From a virus: DNA of 64,000 nt. This document shows positions 47,804 to 51,122 of this stretch, one piece after another. Position 1 is the stretch's first letter, and every line of letters starts with the position of its first letter. Below the pieces are notes generated by a model that worked only from the letters and a program-made list of their open reading frames with translations, was not told where the DNA came from and searched no databases. The stretch is taken from IMG/VR virus record IMGVR_UViG_3300045988_126619, positions 1 through 64,000 of that record; one strand, 5' to 3'. The position numbers and the translations under genes were made by a program.

Positions 47804-48244
47804 TTATTTTTCATTTAGCACGTATATATTCTTTTCTTTCAATAATAACAATACGGTTTCTAAATCTTCTTTTCTTATTTTTATTCTAATATATTCTTTA
47901 TGATTATTAAAATTGTATTCATATAATTCTTGATTATATATATTTTTTTTATATATATTAATGTAAACCCTTTCTTTAATATTTAATTCTTCTTTGCTAA
48001 ATGCGTAATCTACATTTTTATATACTTCAAAATTTTTAAACCCATATTGTTCTATATCATTGATTAATTCATCATTACTTCTTTTTTCTCTTCTTCTAGT
48101 ATTATAAAATTTTTCAATGTCACTAAATCCTTTACCTCTATACCTTCCATTAAATCCATTCTTATTAGAAGTTTTTCCTATATATACCTTATTGTTTATT
48201 TTATTTACAACTTTGTATATTACTCCATATATTTTATTTTTCAT
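47804..48244 (-). CDS. GIY-YIG homing-endonuclease-like protein.
   Basis: KIYGVIYKVVNKINNKVYIGKT..RY.GKG. The start MKNKIYG has an AAGGAG RBS and overlaps the last 11 nt of the RNA polymerase-like gene. Confidence 0.7.
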   Translation of the reverse strand: MKNKIYGVIYKVVNKINNKVYIGKTSNKNGFNGRYRGKGFSDIEKFYNTRRREKRSNDELINDIEQYGFKNFEVYKNVDYAFSKEELNIKERVYINIYKKNIYNQELYEYNFNNHKEYIRIKIRKEDLETVLLLLKEKNIYVLNEK

Positions 48245-51122
48245 TCCCTTCTCCTTTCCTTCTAGTTCTATTATCAATTGTTTTTTCTATATTGACTTTT
48301 TTTGAACATTCATTACAATATTTTTGTCTAGGACTATTACTTTTAAACCTTTCTCCACATTCATTACATATCCTGTATCCTTTTTCTAATGACTTATAAT
48401 CAATGTTATCATTTATATTATTTATTATAGTATCACCAAATACATTAAATATAAATGTAAGATTATTTTCATGATTTAAAAAAGCATCCTTTACAATATA
48501 GTCAACCATGTCATTATAATCTATTCCTTTTTCTTTAGCATATATAATGAAAGATTCTTTTGCATCTATATATACATCTGTTTTTATATCACTTTTTGTT
48601 GTTGCATTTTCCTCTGCTTTCGCTCTTGTTCTTATCTTATCTTTAGTTTGACTTTCTATTTCTTCATATTTAGTTAATACAAAAGCTAAGTCTTTTACAT
48701 TTTTATTATGCAACAATGTTTCTAATTTAAATGTTCCAAATCCTTTCTTATAACTAAATCTTTTATATTTAACATGGTCTATACTTTTACATATTCTATC
48801 TATAACACCATTTCCTATTTCTCTACATTCATTATCTTTTTTATCTTTAGCAAATTTAAAGAAATGTGGATAATCATTATTATTCATTAACTGCTTAATA
48901 TCTTGTGGCAATCTTGGAAGTTCTAATTTTTTAGCAGAATCAATAATCCAGTTATTATATGCACATAATTTCTTTATTTCATCTTCTTTATCTTCATATC
49001 TATGTTGAGAAGTTATATTAGTAAGAGTATTAGAAACTTTACCTATATTAGATTTCTTATATACGAACTCTAATGATTTGAATATATTATTAATAGTTAA
49101 TTGTTTAGCTTCACCACCACCCATTTCATAGTACAATGGTCTAATATCTTTCATTTGTTCTTCTGCTAAATCTAACAACCATTTTTGCTTTGCATTATCC
49201 TTTACTACTAAAGCTTCATCACCATCCCAATCGCACATAAGAACTAAACTCATAAAATCTTTTGCAGAAACATATATAGCCTTAGTATTAAAGTAATTTG
49301 ATTTAGTATTACTAGCCTTATTCTTAGCCATAAACCATTCTCTACTTAAATGTGGACTTCTTAATAATGCCAATCTTTCACTATCTTTATATTCTTCAAA
49401 ATAAACTTCATTTGCTTCTAAATAATAATCTGAACCATCCCCAAATAATAAACTTGAAAAATGTATTAAATCTGGAATTATAAAAACTCTTTTTGCATTT
49501 AAATCTATTCTTCCACTTTTTGCATCTTTTCTATAGCTTGCTAAAACATCACGAACTTGATTTTTTACATATTTACTTGTAAGCATTTCTGGATATAACA
49601 TTAATGCAGTTTGGAAATTATTTTTTCTTTTATTTGATTTTGTAGCAGATAATAATTTTAATTGAGAATCCCTATCTACATGAACATCTTCTATTAATTT
49701 CTTAGTGTCGGCAGTTAAATATTCTATTTGTTCATCTGTCATATCTGTAAGAGTTTGCAACATCTGATAGTTAATATTCATATCCTTTAATCTTGGTTCA
49801 TCTTGCATACATATATTAAATGTGCAATTATATTTCTTAAAGTTTTCCTTATATTCATCCCAATCTTTATAATATTTCCATAACTTGAATTGAGATTTTG
49901 TGAATATTATTTGTATATCATCTTCTACAACATCATATTCTTTTCCATATATATCTTTTACTTTTGTAGATAAATTATTTTCTTTTATATATCTTAAATA
50001 GTTGAATGGACATACTAAACCTTTAAACCAAGGTAATCTTATTTGTGTGTTCTTTTTAAATATTTTAGTAAGACAAATTCCTGCTCCATCCATGAAATCT
50101 ATAGATATATCCATAACTTGTCTAGTTATTTCCCAATCAGTCTTATATACTGTTTTAGTTCTAACACCATTTTCATCATATACACATTTCTTTTCATCTA
50201 AAATTTTATCATCTCTGCTAATATAATCAACTTCACCTCTTATTAATGAAGAATAATCATCAACTACTATACATTTATCAATATCAAAATCTTCATATAT
50301 TTCAGATGCAGAATTGTTAAGACTTAAATAAGCACAGAACTTGTTTGCGTTCATACCTCCCATTTCATTTATTTTATCTATAGTAAGACCACACATTAAA
50401 TGTTTTTCTGTAGTTTCCCATAAATCTTCTTTAATCATCATGAATTTCTTTTGTCTAGTTTGTCCTGCTCCTGCTGTAAAGAATTTATATCTATATTCAT
50501 TACTAGATATTAATTCTCCTGTTTCTTCATCTATTTTTTCATCAACTATAGTAATACCATTTTTAATTACTTGTTCTGTAATTATCATATCAGTATTTCC
50601 TACTTCCATTACTATAAAATCTAATGTTGGTTTATTTTCATCAGCTAATTCTAATCCCAATTCTTGTTTTCTAGCTTTTATAGTTCTTATTGTAGCGTTA
50701 TCAAAAAATGTTATTTCATTCTTTATTCTAAAATCTTTAGTATATACAGTTCTGAATTTATTTTTCTTAATCTCTTCCTTTATTTTATGTGTCACGTCTG
50801 CATATTCTTCTTTTACTTCGCTATATACTAAAGTTTCTTCTGTAATAATAGTTTCTTTTTTACCATTAATCCATTTAATAGTATCAATTTCAATAGTAGT
50901 AGGAACTTCTTCTAATTTTTTCATATATTCTTTACGTTCTTCTGTAGAAATTTCTTCTCCTAAATCCTCATTTACAATTTCTTTATGTTTCTTTTTTAAT
51001 AAATAAGTTCTGTGATTTAATTGATATTGTAAATTATATAATTCTTTTTCATATTCAGTTTTTGTTAATCCTAATCCAATAGAATATAATTTTGTTTGTT
51101 TATTCATAGCCATATTTTTCAT
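48234..51122 (-). CDS. YonO-like single-subunit two-barrel RNA polymerase (RdRP/beta-prime-like DbDGD motif) with a C-terminal zinc ribbon.
   Basis: 962 aa. Contains LLRSPHLS, then CDWDGDEALVV (plus 49218-49232), resembling the DxDGD catalytic loop. C-terminal CNECG...CNEC. Confidence 0.55.
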   Translation of the reverse strand: MKNMAMNKQTKLYSIGLGLTKTEYEKELYNLQYQLNHRTYLLKKKHKEIVNEDLGEEISTEERKEYMKKLEEVPTTIEIDTIKWINGKKETIITEETLVYSEVKEEYADVTHKIKEEIKKNKFRTVYTKDFRIKNEITFFDNATIRTIKARKQELGLELADENKPTLDFIVMEVGNTDMIITEQVIKNGITIVDEKIDEETGELISSNEYRYKFFTAGAGQTRQKKFMMIKEDLWETTEKHLMCGLTIDKINEMGGMNANKFCAYLSLNNSASEIYEDFDIDKCIVVDDYSSLIRGEVDYISRDDKILDEKKCVYDENGVRTKTVYKTDWEITRQVMDISIDFMDGAGICLTKIFKKNTQIRLPWFKGLVCPFNYLRYIKENNLSTKVKDIYGKEYDVVEDDIQIIFTKSQFKLWKYYKDWDEYKENFKKYNCTFNICMQDEPRLKDMNINYQMLQTLTDMTDEQIEYLTADTKKLIEDVHVDRDSQLKLLSATKSNKRKNNFQTALMLYPEMLTSKYVKNQVRDVLASYRKDAKSGRIDLNAKRVFIIPDLIHFSSLLFGDGSDYYLEANEVYFEEYKDSERLALLRSPHLSREWFMAKNKASNTKSNYFNTKAIYVSAKDFMSLVLMCDWDGDEALVVKDNAKQKWLLDLAEEQMKDIRPLYYEMGGGEAKQLTINNIFKSLEFVYKKSNIGKVSNTLTNITSQHRYEDKEDEIKKLCAYNNWIIDSAKKLELPRLPQDIKQLMNNNDYPHFFKFAKDKKDNECREIGNGVIDRICKSIDHVKYKRFSYKKGFGTFKLETLLHNKNVKDLAFVLTKYEEIESQTKDKIRTRAKAEENATTKSDIKTDVYIDAKESFIIYAKEKGIDYNDMVDYIVKDAFLNHENNLTFIFNVFGDTIINNINDNIDYKSLEKGYRICNECGERFKSNSPRQKYCNECSKKVNIEKTIDNRTRRKGEGNEK

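Follow-up and report, generated by a model that had tools for sequence, protein, structure and literature searches.

A window of 64,000 nucleotides (nt) of viral DNA (IMG/VR virus record IMGVR_UViG_3300045988_126619, positions 1 to 64,000) was analysed. An open reading frame (ORF) on its minus strand, at 48234..51122, very probably encodes a single-chain, two-barrel RNA polymerase of the YonO family, which would be DNA-dependent and would serve the late genes of the phage. The two-barrel assignment is supported by sequence, motifs and fold together. An earlier sequence-only reading had put the ORF forward as a YonO-like candidate of 962 amino acids (aa) carrying the peptide LALLRSPHLS, the loop MCDWDGDEALVV and a terminal pair of CxxC motifs, all of which we located in the translation. 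Its 962 codons, counted from the first ATG, are likewise correct; the strand, which it had left unstated, is minus, and the product probably comprises 959 aa. Judged from the sequence, the second ATG at 51113 is likely the true start, since a Shine-Dalgarno-like GAGAGAGG ends 1 base before the first ATG and the gene callers of the public collection give 959 aa. The gene and its motifs are the following.

48234..51122, minus strand: predicted YonO-family single-subunit two-barrel RNA polymerase gene, ORF of 962 codons with ATG start
50445..50474, minus strand: AGAGQTRQKK, N-terminal family-invariant motif (A219, G220, Q221, R223) with no role assigned, from alignments
50019..50090, minus strand: catalytic motif of the first (beta-like) barrel, DGAGICLTKIFKKNTQIRLPWFKG, with D345, R362 and K367, from the translation
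49344..49373, minus strand: LALLRSPHLS, R-x-P motif of the second (beta-prime-like) barrel, residues 584-593 (R588, P590), from the translation
49203..49238, minus strand: MCDWDGDEALVV, metal-binding Asp triad D631/D633/D635, residues 629-640, from the translation
48306..48368, minus strand: C-terminal Cys4 zinc ribbon C919, C922, C936, C939 (CxxC-N13-CxxC), from the translation

The homology to YonO is evident from sequence searches. BLASTP against SPBc2 YonO yielded 34% identity over 826 columns with an expectation value (E) of 5e-129, and tblastn against SPBc2 yonO an E of 1e-112. Residues 6-946 match PHROG 8308, a group of unknown function (E 3e-215). In a tblastn search of deposited phage genomes 39 records were matched. 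CLG_B2308 of Clostridium phage D-1873 ranks top among them (36% identity, E 5e-129); Psychrobacillus phage Perkons shows 37.5% identity, and SPbeta-like Bacillus phages show ~34% over 85% of the query, some of them annotated as yonO or 'DNA-directed RNA polymerase'. A word-indexed search returned 2293 relatives at E <= 1e-5, the closest being 60% identical, and an exhaustive search of 50%-identity representatives gave 845 clusters at E <= 1e-3 and 211 at E <= 1e-30. The closest relatives (52-60% identity) are metagenomic apart from one C. botulinum protein, and named relatives are mostly from C. botulinum, C. perfringens and C. baratii. The identical protein is moreover present on 19 metagenome contigs, one of them labelled human gut metagenome. 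Its occurrence on so many contigs from several metagenomes argues for a circulating phage.

Profile searches against models of RNA-dependent RNA polymerases (RdRPs) and of the double-psi beta-barrel had been proposed in the sequence-only reading. Sixteen of 40 close relatives match Pfam PF05183 (RdRP), with a best E of 6.6e-18, whereas the protein itself does not. Sequence searches of the PDB with the protein and with the family profile recovered no polymerase and no family member, hence the link to solved polymerases comes solely from the fold search described below. A T7-like RNA polymerase (DNA polymerase I fold) was not matched in Pfam, in the PDB sequence search or by Foldseek.

The catalytic residues were evaluated in a family alignment of 40 sequences with a mean column identity of 44%. 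D345, G346, G348, R362, K367, G368, R588, P590, D631, D633, G634 and D635 are invariant, and so are the four cysteines of the zinc ribbon. D345 is part of DGAG, and R362 and K367 are part of QIRLPWFKG; these first-barrel residues add to the second-barrel motifs, the only barrel motifs noted in the sequence-only reading. According to Ruprich-Robert and Thuriaux, eight residues never vary among all two-barrel polymerases; in QDE-1 these are D709, R738, K743, R962, P964, D1007, D1009 and D1011; the Rpb1 counterparts of R962/P964 are R446/P448 (PMC2919709). All eight are found in the window protein, assigned by motif pattern and conservation, and the R-x4-K and R-x-P spacings equal those of QDE-1. 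The eight catalytic residues, the glycines G346, G348, G368 and G634 and the four cysteines are also kept in SPbeta YonO and in the homologue of Clostridium phage D-1873. Since these positions are invariant in the 40 relatives and kept in both phage proteins, the motifs are not chance matches. YonO with an altered Asp triad (3D to 3N) no longer extends RNA (Forrest et al. 2017, PMC5467207).

The suggested DbDGD metal-binding loop therefore holds, with D631/D633/D635 invariant across the 40 relatives and kept in YonO, and D-x-D-G-D occurs just once in the protein (as DWDGD). Its distance from LALLRSPHLS, given as about 50 aa, is roughly right; the exact spacing is 45 residues from start to start, with 35 in between. 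The proposed CxxC..CxxC ribbon was recovered as well, its four cysteines being invariant in the family and aligned with those of YonO, and CxxC is found twice only, at 919 and 936. Pfam zinc-ribbon models match the C-terminus weakly (DZR, E 0.015), and the family profile gives a weak match to Rpb12/RPABC4 (E 0.1).

The structure was predicted by AlphaFold2 run on the family alignment. The model has a mean predicted local distance difference test score (pLDDT) of 87.1 and a predicted template modelling score (pTM) of 0.78. Significant Foldseek matches in the PDB are solely cellular RdRPs (probability 1.0). The best one is RDR2 (7w82, E 9e-19) with a template modelling score (TM) of 0.50, the RDR2 matches being those of maize and Arabidopsis; QDE-1 follows with E 1.7e-14 and weaker. 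TM values for RDR2 and QDE-1 are 0.45-0.50 over ~900 columns. Multisubunit beta-prime is matched faintly (E >= 0.03, TM < 0.1). In a viral structure library the top matches are uncultured-phage proteins named 'RNA dependent RNA polymerase' (E 1.8e-32), and crAss-like phage proteins appear at E >= 0.013. The prediction of two double-psi beta-barrels is thus supported by a confident model that matches the two-barrel enzymes RDR2 and QDE-1. Homology to YonO, catalytic residues and fold agree on a YonO-like identity.

The gene order around the polymerase gene also resembles that of SPbeta. The window has a guanine plus cytosine (GC) content of ~28%, and its listed ORFs of >= 100 aa lie on the minus strand up to ~62.6 kb, save for shorter overlapping ORFs on the plus strand. 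Downstream of the polymerase gene follow a GIY-YIG gene, a 2-kb island of tRNAs and a GOLLD-like RNA, a beta-CASP nuclease, a YonJ homologue, a prohead protease, a YonG homologue, terminase, portal, tail sheath, and tail and fibre genes. The elements relevant here are these.

47804..48244, minus strand: GIY-YIG homing-endonuclease-like gene, 146 aa (PHROG 314, E 6e-9; PHROG 7168, E 2e-8)
45880..47413, minus strand: non-coding island with tRNA-Ser, Gly and Glu, a 908-nt GOLLD-like RNA, and tRNA-Asn and Tyr (ARAGORN, Rfam)
46204-47111, minus strand: GOLLD-like large RNA filling the 908-nt gap between tRNA-Glu and tRNA-Asn (Rfam match 46220-46669)
43843-45297, minus strand: beta-CASP/RMMBL metallo-beta-lactamase nuclease (RNase J/CPSF-like), heading the late block
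40752..41957, minus strand: YonJ homologue (37% identity over the full length, E 5e-75; PHROG 284)
36586..37551, minus strand: YonG homologue (tblastn, 36% identity, E 1e-48)
34774..36544, minus strand: homologue of YonF (terminase large subunit), 53% identity (tblastn in two frames, E 5e-167 and 2e-26)
33217..34752, minus strand: portal protein, YonE homologue (PHROG 2739, E 2e-85; tblastn to YonE, E 2e-6)

Searched with SPbeta proteins by tblastn, the homologues of yonO, yonJ, yonG, yonF and yonE stand in SPbeta order on a common strand. The polymerase gene is located upstream of the late packaging and structural genes and co-oriented with them, with protease, portal, sheath and tail fibres further downstream. 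Relative loci with 55% identical polymerases likewise carry YonK, YonJ and YonG domains downstream. Upstream of these polymerases a tubulin-family gene is found in two loci and a Rep3 gene in the third, which recalls plasmid-prophages such as c-st.

Forrest et al. 2017 (PMC5467207) found the YonO of SPbeta to be an RNA polymerase that strictly depends on DNA and is highly processive. It is made on induction, phage production depends on it, and its transcription of the late operon begins at a site upstream of yonK (PMC5467207). Using the published primer sequences, we placed this start within positions 9099-9292 of the SPbeta locus (L001), 1.2-1.4 kb upstream of yonK. No sizeable ORF lies between this site and yonK, leaving a long untranslated leader; yonJ is immediately downstream of yonK, and yonJ, yonG, yonF and yonE belong to the YonO-transcribed block. 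By analogy, enzymatic activity, a preference for DNA templates, a late-gene regulon and a non-host promoter would be expected for the window enzyme. The view of the sequence-only reading that it transcribes a subset of the phage genes from non-host promoters would accordingly draw on YonO biochemistry and genetics (PMC5467207) and on the conserved gene order.

On this basis the following course may be proposed. The host polymerase would transcribe the polymerase gene early or in mid-infection, as for YonO. The active site would be formed, by homology, between the two barrels, the first giving D345, R362 and K367 and the second R588, P590 and the Mg-binding triad, and the Cys4 zinc ribbon would close the protein. 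The enzyme would then act as a processive DNA-dependent RNA polymerase on the co-oriented block downstream, comprising the tRNA/GOLLD island, YonJ, YonG, terminase and portal, and probably also capsid, sheath and tail. Homology together with gene order suggests this role in late transcription. Initiation would probably take place in the non-coding stretch at 45.3-47.8 kb.

This stretch contains the island, located between the polymerase gene and the late genes. Of the six tRNA genes that ARAGORN placed on the coding strand, five lie within the island (Ser-GCU, Gly-UCC, Glu-UUC, Asn-GUU and Tyr-GUA) and one, Trp-CCA, lies at 43470-43544. Two further tRNA-like fragments, seen by eye, are candidates near 45785-45830 and 46030-46090. 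The large RNA scores 110 bits (E 1.8e-29) against the full Rfam model RF02032 (GOLLD), short of the gathering score of 150, and its region folds with a z-score of -4.3. Phages are known to carry GOLLD RNAs close to tRNA islands (PMC12286853); DNA similar to the GOLLD region was not found in deposited phages.

Candidate start sites were sought by several routes. A scan for sigma-70-type promoters gave 46 against 52 expected in shuffled sequence, the DNA being AT-rich. Three relatives share a block of ~45 nt with two hairpins (AAAGACTGAGAAGTCGTTAAgTATCAGCACAAcatTgAGTGTGC), 180-200 nt past the stop codon of the polymerase gene (L007 ~10985-11040, L008 ~10920-10975, L009 ~11028-11080), while the surrounding intergenic DNA has diverged. 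This block is a candidate for a start region or a small RNA.

The window itself contains a strand-specific 15-17-nt element, (C)ATAAAATAAA[TG/CA]ATA(A), upstream of genes at ~25 sites. Its TG form occurs in 19 copies at <= 2 mismatches versus 0.5 expected, 18 of the 19 being on the coding strand. Copies named in the text are located as follows.

51132..51148, minus strand: early-class 17-nt element CATAAAATAAATGATAA, exact copy, directly before the Shine-Dalgarno of the polymerase gene
51132-51148, 51871-51887, 56146-56162 and 59120-59136: examples of TG-form copies, the first being the copy just given
47616-47630, 45768-45782, 43819-43833, 24820-24834 and 14575-14589: CA-form copies, a further one being at 41970

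By its CATAAAATAAATGATAA copy the polymerase gene falls in with the early and middle genes of the 51-61 kb region, which bear this element as well. Intergenic copies above 51 kb are of TG form in nine cases and of CA form in one, whereas below 48.3 kb six CA copies face two TG copies (Fisher p = 0.013). For 10 of 20 intergenic copies the nearest listed start codon lies 7-38 nt downstream, and several of the larger distances reflect small ORFs missing from the ORF list. In some cases a TG copy makes up the spacer and extended -10 of a good TTGACA-N17-TAATAT promoter; in others it stands directly before a Shine-Dalgarno with TATAAT ~6 nt upstream. For the element, roles as promoter, operator, mRNA leader or processing site are conceivable.

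One CA copy marks the head of the tRNA/GOLLD island, just past the polymerase gene; for the late start site this late-class 15-nt element is no more than a candidate. That the TG and CA forms denote two transcription classes, with the CA form being recognised by the YonO-like polymerase, is a doubtful conjecture. If it were true, this phage would show what kind of promoter serves the YonO family, and the enzyme would drive the GOLLD RNA and the tRNAs as leader of the late transcript. In SPbeta, 'ATTAAACAATAT' within the interval of the start site resembles the late-class element; it was dismissed as chance, as it does not recur in ten other YonO-like loci. The exact 17-mer gave only single matches in IMG/VR, which were taken as chance too.

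Three other explanations have to be weighed against a DNA-dependent polymerase for late genes. The nearest solved structures are the cellular RdRPs RDR2 and QDE-1, relatives match PF05183, and their sources name them 'RNA dependent RNA polymerase'; the enzyme could hence copy or amplify phage or host RNA instead of transcribing DNA. We consider this improbable. These database names stem from the Pfam family name and not from experiments, YonO with 34% identity has a strong preference for DNA templates, to which it keeps more strictly than E. coli RNA polymerase does (PMC5467207), and the gene, like yonO, heads the late-gene block of a double-stranded DNA phage. Even less credible is a decayed or repurposed homologue devoid of polymerase activity, for instance a structural or DNA-binding protein. 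The neighbouring terminase gene, read in two frames, might at most hint at a degenerating element; the polymerase ORF, however, is intact, aligns with its relatives from end to end, has kept all catalytic and zinc residues invariant and recurs as an identical protein on the 19 contigs from several metagenomes.

An active DNA-dependent polymerase might also have its main targets elsewhere, in the tRNA/GOLLD island or in early and middle genes bearing CATAAAATAAATGATAA, and not in the structural genes. This is unlikely, albeit less so than the two preceding explanations. The 2-kb non-coding island with five tRNAs and the GOLLD-like RNA lies directly downstream, and the SPbeta YonO start in its turn precedes an unannotated non-coding RNA, 1.2-1.4 kb upstream of yonK. 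Yet the SPbeta transcript runs on into the late genes, which makes the two readings compatible, and the relatives L007-L009 have neither GOLLD nor tRNAs downstream of the polymerase gene. As to the early genes, the 17-nt element is strongly over-represented and strand-specific, and its length and position before genes resemble the short promoters of single-subunit polymerases. Several early copies are embedded in good host-type TTGACA-N17-TAATAT promoters, however, and a polymerase gene behind its own promoter would need another means of starting.

Some observations count against a YonO-family polymerase for the late genes as well. The protein itself reaches no Pfam family and lacks a PF05183 match even at E <= 1. 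No promoter or start site was identified for its late block by the sigma-70 scan, the block conserved in relatives or motif searches; the two-hairpin block is absent from the window, and nhmmer did not detect it in SPbeta or D-1873 either. The expression class of the polymerase depends on an upstream element common to its early neighbours, to which no function is assigned. Moreover, the contractile-sheath tail module is unlike SPbeta, leaving the extent of the regulon uncertain, and the 64 kb analysed cover part of a ~159-kb genome.

Compared with SPbeta YonO, the window polymerase shows homology over the whole length including the N-terminal 'NKQ..YSI' start, the eight catalytic residues and the Cys4 ribbon, and its gene precedes yonJ, yonG, terminase and portal in the same orientation. 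It differs by its 34% identity and by its size (962 versus 839 aa, i.e. 123 longer), with two extra segments at ~74-99 and 301-325 that are modelled as beta-hairpins. Unlike SPbeta, the phage is contractile-tailed and ~159 kb in size, and the polymerase is accompanied by the GIY-YIG gene and the tRNA/GOLLD island instead of a recognisable YonN (HU) or YonK. With QDE-1 and RDR2, its best model matches, it shares the pattern DG.G...QIR....KG and R.P...D.DGD, whereas sequence identity is just 11-13% and the expected template is DNA, by analogy to YonO. Multisubunit beta/beta-prime and the crAss-like virion polymerase have the two-barrel core, the same Asp triad and the same basic residues in common with it. 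In contrast to the former, the window protein is a single chain of ~110 kDa with faint Foldseek matches and no RNA polymerase Pfam domains, which speaks against the larger conserved core of those enzymes (flap/SBHM insert, bridge helix, trigger loop, clamp); in contrast to the latter, there is no sign of packaging into virions.

For firmicute phages, YonO-like genes have been described before, explicitly so for Clostridium phage c-st and for Bacillus phage 0305phi8-36 (PMC2919709; PMC7824862). The proteins of c-st, D-1873 and 0305phi8-36, from low-GC phages of Clostridia type, belong to the same family as the window protein, which represents a different sub-clade, and in D-1873 tRNAs are located downstream of the polymerase gene too. 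The window gene is thus an addition to a known, little-studied enzyme family, the picture of which is unchanged. To our knowledge YonO is the sole characterised member of the bacterial and phage branch of these polymerases, and the family is a possible model for the single-chain ancestor of the cellular RNA polymerases. What the window adds is a well-conserved member from a ~159-kb human-gut phage with SPbeta-like late-gene order and a confident model; the tRNA/GOLLD island and the two element classes are concrete places for a search for start sites.

Two ~159-kb contigs carrying the identical protein suggest the size of the genome; most likely this is a gut phage that infects a low-GC Firmicute. 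The window DNA found no match among deposited phages, and no close host genome was found among GTDB species representatives. Neither a sigma factor nor a second polymerase turned up in the ~38 larger window ORFs scanned. Upstream of the polymerase gene are genes for a cytidylyltransferase-like and an anti-repressor-like protein, an IS605 OrfB/TnpB, a UvrD-type helicase, NT5C, an AAA protein and a MerR regulator.

Further observations concern the neighbouring genes. An ORF of 101 aa at 45425-45730, HU-like by eye, was discarded as a YonN counterpart, being without similarity to YonN and without a Pfam match. The beta-CASP nuclease has a weak match to Anti-Pycsar Apyc1 in the Pfam list of the public collection, and a beta-CASP gene follows the polymerase gene in the relative locus L008 as well. 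The terminase homologue is split over two frames and two ORFs with a junction near 36230-36261, which may reflect a frameshift, faulty assembly or a gene that is truly in two parts. The ATG of the GIY-YIG gene overlaps the final 11 nt of the polymerase gene, and its product has 146 aa in the public contigs too. An insert of ~1.2 kb splits yonO in several SPbeta-like phages; in Bacillus phage BUCT083 (L015 2330-3232) it encodes a GIY-YIG nuclease. A link between this insert and the window GIY-YIG gene was rejected, since the two nucleases show no specific relationship and Rfam finds no intron at the insert.

A general association of YonO-type polymerases with large ornate RNAs was likewise dropped, as GOLLD and ROOL are absent from SPbeta, D-1873 and L007-L009. 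The SPbeta leader folds no better than shuffled sequence (z -1.4); it holds a DUF3800-VIII RNA motif above the gathering score (L001 9099-10495, motif at 10174-10239). A drum RNA motif is located downstream of the YonO-like gene of D-1873 (L002 14353-14460). Between tandem copies of the 15-17-nt element an inverted repeat, TGTGGTTAG-N12-(C)TTAACCACA, is found at 56112-56145 and 54199-54231 (minus strand), which could be an operator or a hairpin of the 5' untranslated region.

Finally, a mobile element was noticed upstream of the polymerase gene.

52897-54156, minus strand: IS605 OrfB/TnpB-type gene (PHROG 506)
52785-52850, minus strand: RAGATH-18 RNA (71 bits, above the gathering score)

The RAGATH-18 RNA lies immediately downstream of the TnpB-type gene and is most likely the guide (omega) RNA of the adjoining TnpB. 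The insertion is present in the otherwise identical contig L005 and absent from L003 and L004; judging from this distribution among otherwise identical contigs, it looks recently mobile.

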